Below, one piece after another: positions 1 to 23,882 of a DNA stretch of 25,598 nucleotides. The translations under genes and the position numbers were made by a program. The number at the start of each line of letters is the position of its first letter. The stretch's first letter is position 1. Source of the stretch: a virus (taxonomy: Duplodnaviria; Heunggongvirae; Uroviricota; Caudoviricetes); IMG/VR virus record IMGVR_UViG_2778261153_000008. One strand, 5' to 3'. Under the pieces are notes generated by a model that was not told the DNA's origin, made no database searches, and saw only the letters and a list, made by a program, of their open reading frames with translations.

Positions 1-1053
1 TTACGGGGTAATGCCAACCGCTGCCGCCACTTTGTCGCCACTTGGCAGCGTTGCCAGAGGATTGAAACGGAGCGCCGTTTCCAGATGATCCGGTGCCAGA
101 TGTGCGTAACGCATAGTCATTTTTATATCGTGGTGTCCGAGAATTTTTTGTAAGGCCAGAATGTTTCCACCCGACATCATGAAGTGCGCCGCAAACGTAT
201 GGCGCAGAACGTGTGTGAGTTGACCGCGAGGGAGCACGATAGACGTTTTTTCCATCACGGATAAAAATTGAAAATAGCAGTCTGTGAAGAAATTGAACCC
301 ATCAAGCGCCATGATCTCTTCGTAAAGCTCTTTACTGATAGGGATGCTTCTGTTTTTCTTCCCCTTCGTTCTGACAAAGGTAATTCGGTATTTGGTCACC
401 TGTGAGCGAGTAAGATTTACGGCTTCACGCCAGCGTGCGCCTGTGCTTAAGCATATCTTAACTACCAGTGCCAGAATTGGGTCCTGACGTTTGCAATCAG
501 CCAGCAATTCAACAATCTGCTCATGGGTAAGCCATGCCATCTCTTTTTCTGCGATGGTGAATTTTCGCATGTTCTCCAGTGGGTTCGGATACGACCATTC
601 GCCCAGACGGGATAGTTCGCTAAAAACACTACTTAGATAGCTTTGCTCCAGGTTAATGGTGACCGGGCTTGCTCCTTTCTTCCATTTCTCGCTGAAGTAG
701 ATCTCGCCTGTCAGGCGTTTATCTCGATAGTGGGCAAACATTTTAGAGGTGAGATCGGTTGCAAGAGGATTGCCCAGAGCGTCAACCATCAACAGCAATT
801 TGTCATAGACATGCTGCCCAGCTGTCAGAGATTTACCATGTAGTTTGAACCATAGTTCAACCACGTCTTTCAGTGTTCGACGATCCACTGATTCACCCAG
901 CCAGGGCTTTGCTTCGGTTTCTTCCATCGTGTGACGCTCAAAAGCCAGAGCTTCGCCTTTGGTGGCGAATTGTTTACGCACACGACGTCCACTACGTCCG
1001 GCGGGGTAACATTCGCAAAGCCATTTTCCTGTGGTGAGTTTTCGTACTGCCAT
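1..1053 (-). CDS. int: Phage integrase, tyrosine recombinase (P2/186 family)
   Basis: 350-aa ORF; C-terminal tyrosine-recombinase signature (LRHTFAAHF ... GHHDIKMTMRYAHL); sits at prophage end beside the immunity region; stop codon at window positions 1-3 so the gene appears complete. Confidence 0.9.
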   Translation of the reverse strand: MAVRKLTTGKWLCECYPAGRSGRRVRKQFATKGEALAFERHTMEETEAKPWLGESVDRRTLKDVVELWFKLHGKSLTAGQHVYDKLLLMVDALGNPLATDLTSKMFAHYRDKRLTGEIYFSEKWKKGASPVTINLEQSYLSSVFSELSRLGEWSYPNPLENMRKFTIAEKEMAWLTHEQIVELLADCKRQDPILALVVKICLSTGARWREAVNLTRSQVTKYRITFVRTKGKKNRSIPISKELYEEIMALDGFNFFTDCYFQFLSVMEKTSIVLPRGQLTHVLRHTFAAHFMMSGGNILALQKILGHHDIKMTMRYAHLAPDHLETALRFNPLATLPSGDKVAAAVGITP

Positions 1054-1136: not shown

Positions 1137-2813
1137 CTAAGCAACATGCAGTTCATCGTTGGCGGAAGTTGCTGCTTTGCGCTCTTGCTCAATCGCCAGT
1201 GACTCTCTATATTCTTTCGCTTCCGCAAACATTGTCCATTGTGCGTTGATGTTCATATCTTCAATAACAGACTTAATTTCTTTAATATTTACGTTGAAAA
1301 ACTCTTTTCGTGAGTTAATTTTATTGACCTGTTTTTCGTTGAAGACTTTATGCAGATGATTTTCTAATGATGGTGCATCATCACTATAAATCATCGCATG
1401 AACATCGAACGAAAAAGGAACACTAGCATCACCGAGTTCACGAACACGATCAAGTGGTTCAAGGCGGCGTGTCATTCCAATTTTATATACATCTTCGCCA
1501 AATGAGCCAATATTACTAATTATATAAACGTGGCCTGATCTAGTTTGTTGAGCCATAGAAATAGCTCGTTGGTTTTTAGCTTCAGCTTCTTCATATTTTA
1601 ACTGTAGTTCAGCTATTTTTTGCTCTAAAGCTAAGCGTTGTTCTTCATTTGCAAGCATAAGCTCTTTTGTTGCTTTATTTATAGCTTGCTGAATAGCTTT
1701 CTCTTCTTTTTCAGCTTCTTTTATCGCTTTTTCATACTCCCTACGAGCTCTTTCCTCTTCACGAAGTTGTTCTTTAATCCTTCTTTGCTCTTCTTTTTCT
1801 TCGAGCATAATTTCATTAACTGCAACTCCCCATTTTAGCTCGTTGAGTCGAGCTTGAAGATAGATGTCACTTATTTTTGCGGACCTAAAGGCAGAACCAT
1901 TGTAATTTACAAGTTGAAACGCATCTTTTATCTCTTGGGAAAGTTTTCCAAAATTGTTGTGTTTGACTTTTGATAAAATACTGTCAACTCTTCCATTGAA
2001 GGCATCTAAAACAAAGTTGATAGCAGTATTACGCCTGTTTTGTTCGACATAATCACACGAAGCAGCTTTATTAGTTTTTATTAATGATTTTGTTAACTCC
2101 CTGGCTTTTTGTAATTCCTTACCTGCATCTGTAAACTCATAATTTTCTGCCAATTCATCGAGAACGCTACGGTTAGGGATGATCCATTCATCACCATAAC
2201 CTTCAATTTTATTTTTCATTGATTTGGCAACTGCTTCATATTTTTCTGCAAACTCTTTAGCTTCATATGCTGAACCAGCAATCTCTTTTGCTCTTTCTTC
2301 TGCATCGGAAATAATTTTCACTGCATTGTCATTAGCATTTGAGATCAGCTCATTTGCTTTACTATTGGCATTATCAAGACGTTCTTTAGCTTTCAGGCGT
2401 GCATCGCGAGCGTCTTTAGTAATTGCTATAGCTTCGCTATTAGCGTTGCTTATTTTTATCTGAGCTTGATAATTTGCTTCGTTTACTGTCTTAGCAGCCT
2501 TTATTTGGGCTTCTTCTATTTTTTGCCTGGCTATTGAGTCTGCATTTTTTATCTTATTCTCTGCTTCCATCACTGCGCTGTGCAATTCTACGTATTGCCA
2601 TAATGGCGCAGCTCGTCCTTCAAGCTCTGATAGATCTCGTACAGTCTGTGCTAATTCTTCTTGATTTTCTTTCAGTTGGTTGGAAAGGGCTATGTTGTTA
2701 GCTGTCAAGGTATTTATAGCCGCTTTATGTTTTTTGCTTTGCTTAAATAATATTACAGCTAGAATGGGGGCGAGAAATGCTAATAAGAATATAACGATGG
2801 AAAATGAATTCAT
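1137..2813 (-). CDS. Membrane-anchored coiled-coil protein with C-terminal T5orf172/MUG113 (GIY-YIG-like) nuclease domain; DUF4041-like architecture; cargo gene
   Basis: 558 aa. N-terminal hydrophobic helix (FSIVIFLLAFLAPILAVILF), long K/E/A-rich low-complexity middle region predicted coiled coil, C-terminal block GHVYIISNIGSFGEDVYKIGMTRRLEPLDRVRELGDASVPFSF...EFF matching the recalled T5orf172 consensus. Strongly AT-rich versus phage backbone. Start 20 nt downstream of cI stop, SD AAGGA; co-oriented with cI and int. Confidence 0.75.
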   Translation of the reverse strand: MNSFSIVIFLLAFLAPILAVILFKQSKKHKAAINTLTANNIALSNQLKENQEELAQTVRDLSELEGRAAPLWQYVELHSAVMEAENKIKNADSIARQKIEEAQIKAAKTVNEANYQAQIKISNANSEAIAITKDARDARLKAKERLDNANSKANELISNANDNAVKIISDAEERAKEIAGSAYEAKEFAEKYEAVAKSMKNKIEGYGDEWIIPNRSVLDELAENYEFTDAGKELQKARELTKSLIKTNKAASCDYVEQNRRNTAINFVLDAFNGRVDSILSKVKHNNFGKLSQEIKDAFQLVNYNGSAFRSAKISDIYLQARLNELKWGVAVNEIMLEEKEEQRRIKEQLREEERARREYEKAIKEAEKEEKAIQQAINKATKELMLANEEQRLALEQKIAELQLKYEEAEAKNQRAISMAQQTRSGHVYIISNIGSFGEDVYKIGMTRRLEPLDRVRELGDASVPFSFDVHAMIYSDDAPSLENHLHKVFNEKQVNKINSRKEFFNVNIKEIKSVIEDMNINAQWTMFAEAKEYRESLAIEQERKAATSANDELHVA

Positions 2814-2833
2814 TTTTAAATCCTTTTACTATA

Positions 2834-3430
2834 TTAATTTGAAACTATTGTACTTCTTATACAAGCAACTACTTCAATATCAGAAAATGCACATTCAAAG
2901 CTATTCTCTGTACTTGTAATTTTAATCATACCTTTTGGAAGCTTTGTGATTTTTCGAATGGAATAGGTTCCGTCGATGTTGATTAACCAGTGCCCATCAA
3001 GTACTTCAGAAAATTTTTGATCACAAATGTATGTGACGAGCCCATCCTGAATAACAATTGGTGATGAAAGATTTGCAGGAAGAAATGATGAATCGAAGAC
3101 ATATGAACCATCTTCAATCATTTTGCCTGCGGTAAGGCGAAACTTGGCAAGCTCTTCTGTAGCTGCTGTCAGCGAGCTTTGCTTAAGGCCTTGCCCGGTG
3201 GTTAACCATTTCAGTGAGGTTCCTGTTTCAAGAGCACATTGGATTATCCAGTCTGCAGGAAACGTATCCCGCAAATACCTGTTCGCCAGAGTGCTTTTTG
3301 ATACTTCCAAGTGATCAGCTAAAGCCTGTCGTGTCGTAAAGCCATAAGCTTCGACTAATCGCTCAATCGCAGCCTTACCACCTTTATTGGGATTTATTTT
3401 GATCTCATTTGGGTACTTTGATGTTGACAT
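2834..3430 (-). CDS. cI: Immunity repressor, phage 186 CI-like
   Basis: 198-aa ORF divergent from apl/cII; N-terminal HTH-like region (AYGFTTRQALADHLEVSKSTLANRYLR); size and position match 186 CI (about 190 aa). Start codon overlaps the -35 of the rightward promoter. Confidence 0.8.
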   Translation of the reverse strand: MSTSKYPNEIKINPNKGGKAAIERLVEAYGFTTRQALADHLEVSKSTLANRYLRDTFPADWIIQCALETGTSLKWLTTGQGLKQSSLTAATEELAKFRLTAGKMIEDGSYVFDSSFLPANLSSPIVIQDGLVTYICDQKFSEVLDGHWLINIDGTYSIRKITKLPKGMIKITSTENSFECAFSDIEVVACIRSTIVSN

Positions 3431-3477
3431 ATCTCTTTTGCGATCCTAGTATCAATTTTGTCCCCATTTGGGTACTT
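3406..3477. repeat. Two perfect 13-bp direct repeats CATTTGGGTACTT flanking the early promoter; candidate CI or Apl operator sites
   Basis: Copies at 3406-3418 and 3465-3477, 59 bp apart, bracketing the TTGACA/TAGTAT promoter; a degenerate third copy (TATTGGGAT) lies near 3385-3393. Confidence 0.45.
3424..3452 (+). promoter_or_regulatory. Putative early lytic promoter (pR-like) for apl/cII operon
   Basis: TTGACA (3424-3429), 17-bp spacer, TAGTAT (3447-3452); correctly placed about 70 bp upstream of the apl start codon in the cI-apl divergent region. Confidence 0.55.
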
Positions 3478-3525
3478 GTCACGATTACTACAGGCTCACC
3501 ACAAGCCAATAGGAGATGTTGCATC

Positions 3526-3747
3526 ATGACCCCTAACATTTCAATAACTCTGAATACGCCACATGTCACAATTGAGCGTTATAGCGAACTTACTGGTCTT
3601 TCTATCGACACCATCAACGATATGCTGGCTGATGGTCGCATCCCTCGCCATCGCCTTCGGAAAGACAAGAAAAGAGAAAAGGTAATGATCAACCTTGCTG
3701 CTCTTACCGTTGATGCACTTACTGATTGCAATGTTGTATTCAACTAG
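3526..3747 (+). CDS. apl: Excisionase/transcriptional regulator, Apl/Cox-like
   Basis: 73-aa product from ATG 3526 preceded by SD AGGAG (3511-3515); first rightward gene opposite cI; HTH-like segment [21 protein letters not shown]. The ORF-track start at 3409 is an upstream extension with no SD and overlaps cI. Confidence 0.7.
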
Positions 3748-3779
3748 TTCCATTTTGGGATACATCAGGGGTGTCGACT

Positions 3780-4289
3780 ATGTTTGATTACCAAGTTTCC
3801 AAACATCCACATTTTGACGAAGCCTGTCGTGCATTCGCACTGCGCCACAACCTGGTGCAACTGGCAGAACGTGCAGGCATGAATGTACAGATTCTGCGGA
3901 ACAAGCTGAACCCAGCTCAACCTCATTTATTAACCGCACCAGAAATCTGGTTGCTTACCGATCTGACTGAAGATTCAACGCTGGTAGATGGCTTTCTGGC
4001 ACAGATTCACTGCCTGCCATGTGTACCGATTAATGAGGTGGCAAAAGAGAAACTGCCGCATTATGTCATGAGTGCAACTGCAGAGATCGGGCGTGTTGCT
4101 GCAGGTGCGGTATCCGGCGATGTAAAAACCAGTGCAGGTCGTCGTGATGCTATCAGCAGCATTAACTCTGTAACACGGCTGATGGCGCTGGCCGCTGTTT
4201 CATTGCAGGCCCGTTTACAGGCTAATCCTGCGATGGCGAGTGCAGTTGATACCGTTACTGGCCTCGGTGCTTCATTCGGTTTGCTGTGA
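3780..4289 (+). CDS. cII: CII-like transcriptional activator (phage 186 CII family)
   Basis: 169-aa product from ATG 3780 ([19 protein letters not shown]...); size and position after apl match 186 CII; recalled sequence similarity. Confidence 0.7.
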
Positions 4290-4296
4290 GGTGCTT

Positions 4297-4497
4297 ATGC
4301 TTACGAAAGAACCATCATTTGCATCGCTGCTGGTTAAACAAAGCCCGGCAATGCACTACGGTCACGGCTGGATCATGGGTGAGGATGGTAAACGCTGGCA
4401 TCCGTGCCGTTCACAAGATGAATTGCTGGCAGAACTATCTACGAAAAAACGGGGGAACAAATGGCTATTGAAGGCGCTGCGGCGACTGTTCCATTAA
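4297..4497 (+). CDS. Small early protein, hypothetical (possibly Fil-like)
   Basis: 66-aa product from ATG 4297 with SD GAGGTG (4288-4293); in 186 the gene after cII is fil, but I cannot verify similarity. Confidence 0.45.
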   Translation: MLTKEPSFASLLVKQSPAMHYGHGWIMGEDGKRWHPCRSQDELLAELSTKKRGNKWLLKALRRLFH

Positions 4498-22987: not shown

Positions 22988-23882
22988 CCTTTCGCAGTTG
23001 CCTGCACCGCAGATTATGGATGTGCCGGACTTTGAGATGCTGCTTGCCGAACGCAAGGCAGAATTTGTGGCGCTTCATCCGAAAGATGAGCAGGAAGCAG
23101 TGATCCGCACGCTGGAACTGGAATCTGAACCCGTCACCAAATTGTTGCAGGAGAACGCTTACCGTGAGTTGCTTCTGCGTCAGCGCATTAACGAAGCCGC
23201 GCAGGCGGTAATGGTGGCTTACGCGATGGGCGGCGATCTTGACCAGATCGCTGCCAACTACAACGTGAAACGCCTGACGGTGACGCCTGCTGATAATGAC
23301 GCTGTGCCGCCCGTTGCAGCAGTGATGGAAAGCGATGAAGCGTTACGCCTGCGTGTGCCTGCAGCCTTTGAGGGGCTTTCAGTTGCGGGACCAACTGCCG
23401 CTTATGAATTTCATGCCCGAAGCGCCGACGGTCGGGTGGCGGATGCCAGTGCAACCAGTCCGGCACCTGCAGAGGTGGTGCTGACAGTCCTTAGCCGCGA
23501 AGGCGACGGAACAGCAGAAAAAGACCTGCTGGATGTGGTGGAGAAAGCACTGAACAGTGAGAATGTCCGCCCGGTGGCTGACCGTCTGACGGTTCGCAGC
23601 GCGGAAATCATCCCGTACCGCGTGGAAGCCACCATTTTTCTCTATCCGGGACCGGAAGCAGAGCCGGTAATGGCAGCGGCAAAAGCCAGCCTGCAGAGGT
23701 ACATTGCCAGTCAGACGCGGCTTGGTCGGGATATTCGCCGTAGCGCCATTTTTGCCGCGCTGCATGTTGAGGGTGTTCAGCGTGTGGAACTGGCTTCCCC
23801 GCAGGCGGACGTGGTCCTGAACAAAACGCAGGCGGCATCATGTACGCAGTGGAGCGTGACCAACGGGGGAACGGATGAATAG
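22974..23882 (+). CDS. J: Baseplate protein J (P2 gpJ-like)
   Basis: 302 aa from ATG 22974 (SD AGGAG 22963-22967), equal to P2 gpJ length; overlaps W end by 14 nt. Confidence 0.85.
   Translation: MAVIDLSQLPAPQIMDVPDFEMLLAERKAEFVALHPKDEQEAVIRTLELESEPVTKLLQENAYRELLLRQRINEAAQAVMVAYAMGGDLDQIAANYNVKRLTVTPADNDAVPPVAAVMESDEALRLRVPAAFEGLSVAGPTAAYEFHARSADGRVADASATSPAPAEVVLTVLSREGDGTAEKDLLDVVEKALNSENVRPVADRLTVRSAEIIPYRVEATIFLYPGPEAEPVMAAAKASLQRYIASQTRLGRDIRRSAIFAALHVEGVQRVELASPQADVVLNKTQAASCTQWSVTNGGTDE

Follow-up and report, generated by a model that had tools for sequence, protein, structure and literature searches.

The immunity region of this prophage raises the question of what reads two identical 13-bp sequences that lie, in the same orientation, on either side of a strong promoter at the start of the repressor gene. 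The 25,598 nucleotides of viral DNA that were analysed (hereafter the window) represent a P2-like prophage, whose immunity region, of the 186 type, comprises int, a defence gene (PD-Lambda-1), cI, a Cox/Apl-like gene and cII. The order int, leftward cI, rightward apl/cox-like gene, cII and fil is that of 186-type phages, as judged from open reading frames, Pfam and PHROG matches, annotated relatives and the annotation of 186 itself. The repressor shows an N-terminal helix-turn-helix domain (Pfam Phage_CI_repr, E=8e-32) and an oligomerisation domain (Phage_CI_C, E=4e-27), and matches 186 CI in the PDB (2fjr, E=1.6e-27; 2fkd, E=5e-9). CII is 69% identical to 186 CII and matches Phage_CP76. The CI domains, the 2fjr match, the Cox/Apl-like gene, CII and the gene order all agree with the 186-type immunity switch that an earlier note on this DNA had proposed. 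The switch itself is well known, and its immunity type is an ordinary, uncharacterised one. The two divergent genes are:

2834-3430, minus strand: cI, 186-type immunity repressor of 198 amino acids (open reading frame, Pfam, PDB)
3526-3747, plus strand: Cox/Apl-like excisionase/repressor of 73 amino acids, first gene of the lytic operon (phrog_575, E=9.6e-32)

Direct reading of the sequence placed a rightward promoter, pR, and both repeats exactly where the earlier note had them:

3424-3429, plus strand: pR -35 hexamer TTGACA (sequence reading and promoter scan)
3447-3452, plus strand: pR -10 hexamer TAGTAT (sequence reading and promoter scan)
3406-3418, plus strand: first copy of the 13-mer, CATTTGGGTACTT, inside cI
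3465-3477, plus strand: second copy of the 13-mer, CATTTGGGTACTT

The pR hexamers are separated by a 17-bp spacer (3430-3446), and the cI start codon (3430-3428 on the minus strand) shares the last two bases of the -35. A promoter scan of positions 2700-4400 returned two matches only, TTGACA-17-TAGTAT rightward (10/12) and GTGACA-16-CAAAAT leftward (9/12). The copies of CATTTGGGTACTT are exact, lie 59 bp apart from start to start and are the sole exact repeat of at least 13 bp within 100 bp in the whole 25.6-kb window. A search of the window for extra copies of the 13-mer found nothing above chance, and the 10-bp core with up to two mismatches gave 14 matches versus 17.8 expected, of which none stands out. 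In 78 relatives, defined as loci with the same CI DNA-binding domain (46 unique sequences, used for the variability profiles), the -35 was found in 70 and the -10 in 64, and pR is also retained in heteroimmune groups. Among the same loci, the 13-mers are identical to each other in 9 and the 10-mers in 39, but 77 have the TTGGG core in each copy; the perfect identity of the 13-mers is an allelic accident of this window. A longer repeat of 23 nt was dropped because the relatives do not conserve its left part, ATTTTG, in their second copy.

The reading that we consider probable is that the prophage's own 186-type CI has three operators here and that the 13-mers belong to the first and third of them:

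3401-3416, unstranded: O1, proposed CI operator, GATCTCAT followed by TTGGGTAC, directly left of the -35 and overlapping cI codons 5-10
3430-3445, unstranded: O2, proposed weaker CI operator, TATCTCTT followed by TTGCGATC, in the pR spacer
3460-3475, unstranded: O3, proposed CI operator, GTCCCCAT followed by TTGGGTAC, over the pR start site

The centres of O1 and O2 are 29 bp apart and those of O2 and O3 30 bp. Each operator is, in all probability short of certainty, an imperfect 16-bp inverted repeat with the consensus GWWCNCAW/WTGNGWWC (the slash marks the dyad centre). The 13-mer would thus consist of the common right half-site TTGGGTAC together with the dyad centre, so that each copy covers the centre and right half of its operator (O1 or O3) plus 2 bp, and it is only the difference between the left half-sites of O1 and O3 that would give the repeat its direct appearance.

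Dyad symmetry is seen at O3, whose score of 6/8 has a background frequency of 0.4%. In 9 relatives the same site is a perfect palindrome, GTACCCAATTGGGTAC, with a score of 8/8; natural forms of the site include GTCCCCATTTGGGTAC, GTTCCCATTTGGGGAC and GTACCCAATTGGGTAC. Its variability in the 46 unique sequences is mirror-symmetric, with 2, 1, 11, 0, 0, 0, 3 and 5 at positions 1 to 8, and 3, 3, 19, 0, 0, 0, 0 and 0 at positions 16 to 9. Conservation begins at 3460, five bases to the left of the 13-mer and right after a hypervariable linker (3453-3459). The earlier note had taken the repeats as direct, not inverted, and had argued from this against a simple dimeric operator; since the copies sit in 16-bp dyads that are perfect in some relatives and conserved in a mirror-symmetric manner, a dimeric operator is the better reading.

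O1 and O2 reach a dyad score of only 4/8 each, as do about 12% of random 16-mers, and for this reason their assignment as dyads leans on O3 and on two other loci. In the heteroimmune locus L115, the sequences GTACCCATCTGTGAAC, CTTCCCATATGTGGAC and GTACCCAGATGTGAAC occur at the same spacing of 29 and 30 bp, with a clear middle copy. The second is Haemophilus phage HP1, compared by its sequence and GenBank annotation (U24159), whose CI belongs to the same two-domain family (33% identical over the full length). In HP1, three dyads 31 and 28 bp apart extend across the annotated PR promoters, and the outer two are separated by 59 bp in total, as are O1 and O3; the cI start codon is directly adjacent to the first -35, and the PL hexamers are located at and inside the start of cox. 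The half-site sequence is different (GGGTCAA/TTGACCC), and HP1 has, unlike the present prophage, two tandem rightward promoters, PR1 and PR2, and no cII annotated in the stretch examined. With regard to 186, whose sites were taken from the annotation of GenBank U32222, the inner 12 bp of O1 (TCTCAT/TTGGGT) match the dyad between the pR hexamers (TCTCAA/TTGGGA) at 10 of 12 positions. This dyad falls within the annotated three-site CI region, and the operator core proposed here, C.CAWWTG.G, agrees with it as the central pR dyad.

A scan of the window with the consensus ranked O1, O3 and O2 first to third, a circular result because the consensus was derived from those same three sites. The core CNCAWWTGNG has 4 matches in the window versus 2.8 expected; three of them fall within 3404-3576, the third being at 3567-3576 inside apl, and this clustering near the operators is suggestive only. 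A 17-bp dyad with a score of 6/8 is also present at 3472-3488, where about one such match is expected in the region at background rates.

A different proposal would be that CI reads true head-to-tail repeats, recognising the TTGGGTAC side only and leaving the left halves irrelevant, for instance with one DNA-binding domain per dimer or through a non-symmetric oligomer. The identical right halves and differing left halves of O1 and O3 (GATCTCAT versus GTCCCCAT), the weak scores of O1 and O2 (4/8), the same left/right asymmetry at all three sites of L115 and the same-orientation TGTGA motifs of heteroimmune relatives whose CI has a tandem HTH would all fit such a mode of binding. However, positions 1, 2 and 4-7 on the left side of O3 are as conserved as its right half, and their conservation starts exactly at 3460, which together with the mirror-symmetric variability of the site and its perfect 16-bp palindrome in 9 loci points to recognition of both halves. 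The left halves of O1 and O2, with C at positions 4 and 6, also agree with the consensus of a half-site, and the sites of HP1 and the central site of 186 are clear dyads. Head-to-tail recognition is therefore regarded as unlikely, and dimeric operators as the preferred interpretation.

The conservation of these operators extends to O1 and O2. O1 is near-invariant in the 78 relatives, where its central position 3408 alone varies, and the O2 spacer is almost invariant, with variation at its central position 9 alone. As O1 lies in coding sequence, part of its invariance could be due to protein constraint; its variable position, however, alters an amino acid, whereas its synonymous positions are fixed. 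In cI codons 16-30, synonymous sites show variation in as many as 30 of the 46 sequences, and, unlike these, codons 1-15, O1 and the promoter spacer with O2 are nearly invariant, a pattern which suggests that selection acts on the operator DNA itself and not just on the CI protein. Moreover, all three operators are retained in every IMG/VR locus with the same helix-turn-helix region, even at 52-65% overall CI identity. It is hard to regard the repeat as a chance or historical duplication without a function of its own, or as an element with an RNA-level role in the leader of cI or the early transcript. Some close 13-mer repeat is indeed held by 3% of shuffled windows (15 of 500 dinucleotide-preserving shuffles), and exact identity occurs in just 9 of the 78 relatives, but the core is kept in both copies in nearly every locus, beside hypervariable linkers, and the copies bracket a conserved promoter. 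As for RNA, the predicted leaders fold no better than shuffled sequences (pL leader, z=+0.71; pR leader, z=-0.05), and a pair of repeats in direct orientation has no means of base-pairing with one another. Both versions of this explanation are very improbable.

Comparison with heteroimmune prophages indicates which gene the repeats accompany. Klebsiella phages 4LV2017 and ST11-OXA245phi3.1 and a prophage of E. coli TW11681 share Apl (100% identical) and CII (99-100%) with the present prophage, but carry a different CI (44-50% identity), and show TGTGA(A/T) motifs in place of the 13-mers. The alignment to these prophages breaks at about 3478, just right of the second copy. Likewise, the apl side of the locus was found in 397 of 5426 complete E. 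coli genomes and the cI side in only 173 (the immunity type also occurs in Klebsiella, Citrobacter, Raoultella and related prophages), and in those genomes with the apl side only, the matches begin at 3478-3480 (query positions 179-181). These data place a putative module border at:

3478-3480, unstranded: right boundary of the immunity module, recombination junction with heteroimmune prophages (alignment break, starts of partial matches)

On this distribution, and on that of the IMG/VR loci, the repeats are linked to CI, through its N-terminal DNA-binding domain, and not to Apl. Although Apl and other recombination directionality factors (RDFs) bind direct repeats, in 186 between pR and pL (PMC7498355; 186 annotation), it is very improbable that the 13-mers are sites for the Cox/Apl-like protein. 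Sites of an RDF should accompany its gene, as short direct repeats one helical turn apart, but the three prophages whose Apl is 100% identical lack the 13-mers. These number two copies at a 59-bp spacing, one of them inside cI to the left of the -35, instead of the arrays of 5-7 repeats of 6 bp with 10-11 bp spacing reported for such factors (PMC7498355). A better candidate array is found at 3478-3503, within the part of the locus that accompanies apl. The earlier suggestion that the repeats are bound by Apl-like or higher-order CI complexes would hence hold in its second part: the repeats appear functional, and a multi-site CI complex is their likely binder. A strong pR by the cI start, covered by three CI operators, is a character of 186-type switches that the present locus shows by sequence and comparison: pR is conserved, and the three proposed operators are conserved, dyad-like and tied to the CI N-terminal domain.

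The most plausible way of working for this switch would start with the occupation of O1, upstream of the -35, O2, in the -35/-10 spacer, and O3, over the inferred transcription start near 3459, by CI dimers joined via their C-terminal oligomerisation domains. Cooperative binding to the three sites would turn the rightward lytic pR off, and the CI oligomer would be, by homology with 186, a wheel of dimers. The shut-off of pR would in turn relieve its interference on a weak leftward promoter, pL, placed at the start of apl and facing pR at a distance of about 50 bp, which would transcribe cI from a predicted start near 3509. A leftward promoter at GTGACA (3477-3482) had been suggested for this role. 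The hexamer is present on the minus strand (3482-3477), but its -10, CAAAAT, was found in only 15 of the 78 relatives, and the sixth base is not T in 43 of them, so that GTGACA-16-CAAAAT was rejected as pL. A better candidate is TTGAAA-17-CAACAT:

3516-3521, minus strand: proposed pL -10 hexamer CAACAT, which precedes the apl ATG by 5-10 nt
3539-3544, minus strand: proposed pL -35 hexamer TTGAAA, inside apl (ATG+14 to +19)

CAACAT is kept in 76 of the 78 relatives (the Xenorhabdus group shows CAATAT at this position) and TTGAAA in 77, although the conservation of the latter is confounded by coding constraint on apl. The proposed pL matches 8 of 12 consensus positions and overlaps the ribosome-binding site and coding sequence, and the offsets of its hexamers from the apl ATG are those of the annotated pL hexamers of 186 (-35 TTGCGA, -10 CATGAT).

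The layout of pR and pL, which the earlier note had expected to be 186-like, can be compared on this basis. The protein families and the gene order are the same, with a two-domain CI that is 33% identical to 186 CI, and in both phages three CI sites (here predicted) cover pR, the array beginning at the 5′ end of cI or inside it. The proposed pL hexamers, the predicted CII site and the FR-like element described below are also placed as in 186. On the other hand, the pR -35 overlaps the cI start codon here and is 15 bp away from it in 186, the spacer between cI and apl has 95 bp versus 129 bp, the predicted separation of the pR and pL starts is about 50 bp versus 62 bp, and the Apl-like protein belongs to the Cox-like type phrog_575 and gave no tblastn match on 186 apl at E<=1e-3. 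In 186, CI forms a wheel of dimers that binds cooperatively to three operators at pR, and these operators are two helical turns (about 21 bp) apart (PMC3675496). Since the spacing here is of 29 and 30 bp instead of two turns, the array is longer, about 75 bp versus 56 bp in 186. This difference in spacing is an observation that counts against the CI-operator model. A 32-bp operator spacing at 186 pB was reported to distort DNA (PMC3675496).

The same comparison opens a tentative possibility, to which we would give somewhat less than an even chance: a spacing of about three turns (28-31 bp, with 59 bp between the outer sites) could be the usual CI layout at pR in several heteroimmune lineages of the 186/HP1 family, 186 being the exception. 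The 186 CI is a 14-mer wheel that wraps operator DNA. If the three-turn layout holds and these repressors form wheels, adjacent dimers would lie about 30 bp apart along the DNA. A geometry of about 30 bp per dimer was raised by Wang et al. to explain why 186 wheels cover about 180 bp versus the predicted 147 bp (PMC3675496), and the present prophage would then offer a natural means of testing the geometry of wrapping. In any case, the natural operator variants, including the perfect palindrome, and the conserved 29/30-bp geometry offer tests of how 186-family oligomers engage DNA, and putative operators, promoters and a module boundary can now be assigned to an uncharacterised immunity type. 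For genome annotation, this is otherwise an ordinary prophage switch, but one which indicates that direct-looking repeats in such switches can represent whichever half of an asymmetric dyad is better conserved.

This last point also concerns the P2-type switches (P2, P2 Hy dis and WPhi), where a C repressor acts on the directly repeated half-sites O1 and O2 (PMC1904268, PMC1904263). The prophage would share with them face-to-face early and lysogenic promoters, and it has, as they do, direct-looking repeats near the early promoter. However, the P2 operators are true direct repeats, whereas those described here would resolve into dyads, and the P2-type C repressors are unrelated to CI, about half its size and not alignable to it (PMC3448106). 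A P2-type C-repressor switch was discarded, as the present prophage has a 186-family CI of 198 aa with two domains.

Further candidate elements of a 186-type region lie to the right of the module boundary:

3478-3503, minus strand: candidate Cox/Apl boxes CGTGAC, TGTAGT and TGTGGT, about 9-11 bp apart
3748-3764, unstranded: FR-like element GTTCCATTTTGGGATAC, located between the stop codon of apl and the start of cII, a candidate for a distal CI site, for part of pE or for both
3780-3807, unstranded: predicted CII binding site ATGTTTG...CAAACAT, for pE, at the start of cII

In phage 186, CI also has distal sites, FL and FR, some 300 bp to each side of pR. The FR-like element lies 16-32 bp upstream of the cII ATG, where the annotated FR of 186 lies 15-31 bp upstream, and its TTCCATTTTG(G/A)GA sequence is kept while the adjoining intergenic bases vary. 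Its consensus score of 11/14 is equal to that of 16 sites in the window, that is, at background level, and hence no distal CI site can be claimed; a consensus scan of the window for a site of the FL type found no candidate. The inverted heptamers of the predicted CII site occupy the place of the annotated CII site of 186 (23435-23462), and a CII activator with such an inverted-repeat site at pE is a further character of 186-type switches.

A 186-type region also has an array of Apl direct repeats, 10-11 bp apart, both between pR and pL and at att. The candidate Cox/Apl boxes, which are weak ones, belong to a segment common to phages with an identical Apl. The att site of the prophage falls outside the window, and attL was examined in a relative, phage 813R9, where GTGGT repeats 10 bp apart adjoin int, a weak lead. 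Finally, in a Yersinia phage, a Cox-like protein with 42% identity is encoded beside T(A/G)GTGA repeats with a spacing of 10 bp.

The domains of the CI encoded here, the PHROG 575 assignment of the Cox/Apl-like protein, the identity of CII and the occurrence of near-identical phage regions place the region in a P2-like (Peduoviridae) prophage, as its immunity region, with a switch of the 186 type. Its genes are:

1-1053, minus strand: tyrosine integrase (int), at whose stop codon the window begins
1137-2813, minus strand: cargo gene of 558 aa, between int and cI
2834-3430, minus strand: cI repressor gene, 198 aa, with Pfam and PDB matches
3526-3747, plus strand: Cox/Apl-like gene (apl), 73 aa, PHROG 575
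3780-4289, plus strand: cII, 169 aa, Phage_CP76

The repressor contains Phage_CI_repr and Phage_CI_C, the two Pfam domains found in the 186 CI family, and its structural matches in the PDB (2fjr and 2fkd) are crystal structures of 186 CI. PHROG 575 is the family 'Cox-like excisionase and repressor', the Phage_CP76 CII is 69% identical to 186 CII, and near-identical regions are found in Escherichia phage vB_EcoM-813R9, Klebsiella phage KP12 and E. coli chromosomes. The 558-aa cargo protein, with DUF4041 and T5orf172/MUG113 domains, is matched by the PADLOC anti-phage defence model PD-Lambda-1 (E=4.7e-120), and in related phage records its gene is labelled 'chromosome segregation ATPase'.

Around the rightward early lytic promoter (pR), every element listed in the earlier note was re-read in its place, and three 16-bp elements (O1, O2 and O3) are proposed as CI operators:

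3401-3416: O1, halves GATCTCAT and TTGGGTAC, containing copy 1 and with the same right half as O3
3406-3418 and 3465-3477, plus strand: exact copies 1 and 2 of the 13-mer CATTTGGGTACTT
3424-3429, plus strand: TTGACA, -35 of pR
3430-3428, minus strand: ATG of the cI ORF
3430-3445: O2, halves TATCTCTT and TTGCGATC, a third, weaker element filling the promoter spacer
3447-3452, plus strand: TAGTAT, -10 of pR, 17 bp after TTGACA
3460-3475: O3, halves GTCCCCAT and TTGGGTAC, reaching five bases further left than copy 2
3482-3477, minus strand: GTGACA, candidate -35 of the leftward cI promoter (pL) in the earlier note

Besides the 13-mer pair, the window holds no other exact repeat of at least 13 bp within 100 bp, and only 15 of 500 dinucleotide-preserving shuffles gave any such close pair. 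Perfect 13-mer identity is specific to the window allele: among 78 loci sharing the CI DNA-binding domain, the two 13-mers are identical in 9 and the 10-mers in 39, and 77 loci carry TTGGG in each copy.

The repeats had been described as direct, not inverted, a view that is not supported, since both copies lie in 16-bp dyads and O3 is palindromic in some relatives, with mirror-symmetric variability. O3 pairs at 6 of 8 positions, a score attained by only 0.4% of the 16-mers in the window, and phage 813R9 and eight IMG/VR loci carry at its place the perfect palindrome GTACCCAATTGGGTAC. Among 46 unique sequences, the numbers differing from the majority base mirror each other (2, 1, 11, 0, 0, 0, 3 and 5 at positions 1-8; 3, 3, 19, 0, 0, 0, 0 and 0 at positions 16-9), and the conserved stretch starts at 3460, outside the 13-mer and right after a hypervariable linker (3453-3459) where up to 24 of the 46 differ. 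Such a pattern is the one expected where a symmetric dimer recognises the DNA.

O1 and O2, whose centres follow one another and that of O3 at 29 and 30 bp, form only 4 of 8 dyad pairs each and are thus unconvincing by themselves. In the left half of O1, positions 4 and 6 are still C and position 7 is still A. Support for O1 and O2 comes from conservation, from the geometry of a related locus (L115) and from the dyads of HP1. In cI codons 16-30 a synonymous site can differ in as many as 30 of the 46 sequences, whereas codons 1-15, O1, the -35 and the whole promoter spacer are almost invariant, with free variation only at the dyad centres (O1 position 8 in 20/46, O2 position 9 in 11/46). L115, with a CI of 49-51% identity and a different recognition helix, carries three clear copies (GTACCCATCTGTGAAC, CTTCCCATATGTGGAC and GTACCCAGATGTGAAC) spaced 29 and 30 bp and placed with respect to TTGACA and TAGTAT as the window operators are. 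In the case of HP1, with a CI 33% identical to that of the window, three dyads (GAGTAAATTGACCT, GGGTCAAACGACCC and GGGTCAATTGACCC) lie 31 and 28 bp apart across the annotated PR1/PR2.

The best reading makes the repeats the half-site common to two of three proposed CI operators, which would bracket and fill pR; the repeat finding is real and appears functional. Mainly because O1 and O2 have poor left halves, recognition by CI in a purely direct-repeat mode is worth considering, but we regard it as improbable. Given the conservation pattern, neither chance nor a historical duplication is a likely origin, and an explanation by RNA structure is not supported by the predicted leaders (z=+0.71 for pL and z=-0.05 for pR).

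Next to O1, cI codons 11-15 (ATTGGGATTTATTTT, 3386-3400) show almost no synonymous variation among the 46 unique relatives. Within them TTGGGAT resembles a half-site and lies 22 bp to the left of TTGGGTAC in O1, and L115 has TTTGGATC in the corresponding place; these codons may be a fourth CI contact, through a half-site only.

With regard to the protein involved, Klebsiella phages 4LV2017 and ST11-OXA245phi3.1 and an E. coli TW11681 prophage show, relative to the window, 100% identity in Apl and 99-100% in CII, but only 44-50% in CI. Coming from the right, their alignment with the window is almost perfect and ends at ~3478, directly after copy 2; further left they diverge, promoter hexamers excepted, and TGTGA(A/T) motifs replace the 13-mers. 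Among 5426 complete E. coli genomes, the apl side is matched in 397 and the cI side in 173, with partial matches starting at the same breakpoint (query 179-181, window 3478-3480). Conversely, IMG/VR and GTDB loci with the same helix-turn-helix (HTH) region retain the sites even when CI is 52-65% identical elsewhere. Taken together, the repeats are linked to the N-terminal domain of CI rather than to Apl, which removes the Apl-like binding suggested in the earlier note. Three GTDB loci (L040, L042 and L043) retain the operator region with stop codons in the C-terminal half of the cI frame, and L040 also has degraded pR hexamers (GGTGTC, AGGTAT); they look like decaying prophages.

The sole leftward match of a promoter consensus scan of 2700-4400 is GTGACA-16-CAAAAT (3482-3455, minus strand), the pL candidate of the earlier note. 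We rejected it, since its CAAAAT, within the hypervariable linker, is present in only 15 of the 78 loci (the sixth base is not T in 43), and the -10 hexamers of pR and pL would be just 2 bp apart. Positional homology offers a better candidate, as 186 pL has its -10 at apl ATG-10..-5 and its -35 at ATG+14..+19, the same offsets as:

3521-3516, minus strand: CAACAT, proposed pL -10
3544-3539, minus strand: TTGAAA, proposed pL -35, 17-bp spacer

CAACAT is kept in 76/78 loci and TTGAAA in 77/78, a conservation confounded by the RBS and the coding sequence, so that TTGAAA-17-CAACAT at the apl start is put forward only as a putative pL. A Xenorhabdus group has TTGAAA-17-CAATAT at the equivalent place. 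The proposed promoter matches the consensus at 8/12 positions, equal to the real 186 pL, which explains why the scan missed it. The predicted pR and pL start sites would be ~50 bp apart, a distance in the range of 40-60 bp that is usual among P2-like phages (PMC7498355). Past the proposed pL, 104 bp to the right of the centre of O3, CACAATTGAG (3567-3576, inside apl) fits the operator core CNCAWWTGNG, which has 4 matches in the 25.6-kb window, 3 of them within 3404-3576; this site may offer CI a weak contact of the kind reported for pL of 186.

The GenBank record of phage 186 annotates:

23011-23067 (186): three CI sites, beginning at the cI start codon
pR: TTTACT-17-TATATT
Between pR and pL: seven Apl sites
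pL: TTGCGA-17-CATGAT, -35 inside apl
Directly after the apl stop codon: FR, a distal CI site
Start of cII: CII site

The dyad between the 186 pR hexamers has the halves ATCTCTCAA and TTGGGAGAT, and its inner 12 bp (TCTCAA/TTGGGA) match those of O1 (TCTCAT/TTGGGT) at 10 of 12 positions, in keeping with the resemblance between the recognition helices (SLSNRYTRG for 186, TLANRYLRD for the window). However, 186 has its three pR operators two turns apart, spanning 56 bp and occupied by CI as part of a seven-dimer wheel (PMC3675496), whereas the window operators are 29-30 bp apart; in 186, pB has a 32-bp spacing and 30.5 bp is proposed for FL-FL' (PMC3675496). The window is also more compact, with a -35 overlapping the cI ATG and a cI-apl spacer of 95 bp, as compared to 129 bp in 186; the 95 bp are inside the range of 88-125 nt reported for the family (PMC3448106). 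The window would therefore work like 186, judging from these sequence features, but with other phasing and compactness. The Apl suggestion, the 'not inverted' inference and the pL placement of the earlier note should be replaced. The repeat-bracketed pR is an ordinary example of a switch already known, with one mildly interesting point, the ~30 bp spacing conserved in several lineages of this repressor family versus two turns in 186. In 186 itself, the annotated pR CI region contains TTTGGCTAA in its right-hand part, and the sequence recurs 62 bp rightward, just upstream of the apl start and pL -10 (positions 99-113 and 161-175 of the compared stretch, L002), a distance equal to the 186 pR-pL start-site separation.

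As leads to the true Apl array, we note three candidate pointers. The segment 3478-3525, which travels with apl and is almost invariant save 3489-3493, carries CGTGAC, TGTAGT and TGTGGT on the minus strand, ~9-11 bp apart; the attL of phage 813R9 has two GTGGT, 10 bp apart, adjoining int; and a Yersinia phage Cox-like protein (42% identical) is encoded beside three T(A/G)GTGA repeats of 10-bp spacing. That attL side (L001 113-165, just beyond the left end of the window) shows two tandem AACAATAAGTTAGGTT followed by GGTGGTCAGTGGTGGT, directly adjoining the int stop codon; Int or the Cox/Apl-like protein probably uses them as att arm sites. Further elements are placed as in 186:

3748-3764: FR-like element GTTCCATTTTGGGATAC, at the 186 FR position
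3780-3806: predicted CII half-sites ATGTTTG and CAAACAT

The TTCCATTTTG(G/A)GA part of the FR-like element is conserved amid variable neighbours, and the operator consensus score of the element is no higher than background.

In 26 Xenorhabdus prophages (L014-L039), a palindrome with 8-bp arms (e.g., CTCATCAA ... TTGATGAG), ~30-70 nt downstream of the pR -10 (positions 88-121 of the compared stretch in L014) and without counterpart in the window, surrounds an O3-like dyad (GTTCTCGATATGAGATC); by eye, the arms vary by species and keep their complementarity. Finally, in heteroimmune relatives, among them phage PSP3, which has long been known, the CI is a 186-family protein of 286-316 aa in which a tandem pair of Phage_CI_repr HTH domains precedes a single Phage_CI_C domain:

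L003 1132-2073: Klebsiella phage 4LV2017
L004 ~7-915: related locus
L046 1-913: related locus
L128 216-1076: phage PSP3

An earlier survey attributed a 'longer C-terminal domain' to the protein of PSP3 (PMC3448106). The switches of these relatives show three TGTGA(A/T) motifs in the same orientation, spaced 29 and 20 bp in 4LV2017.
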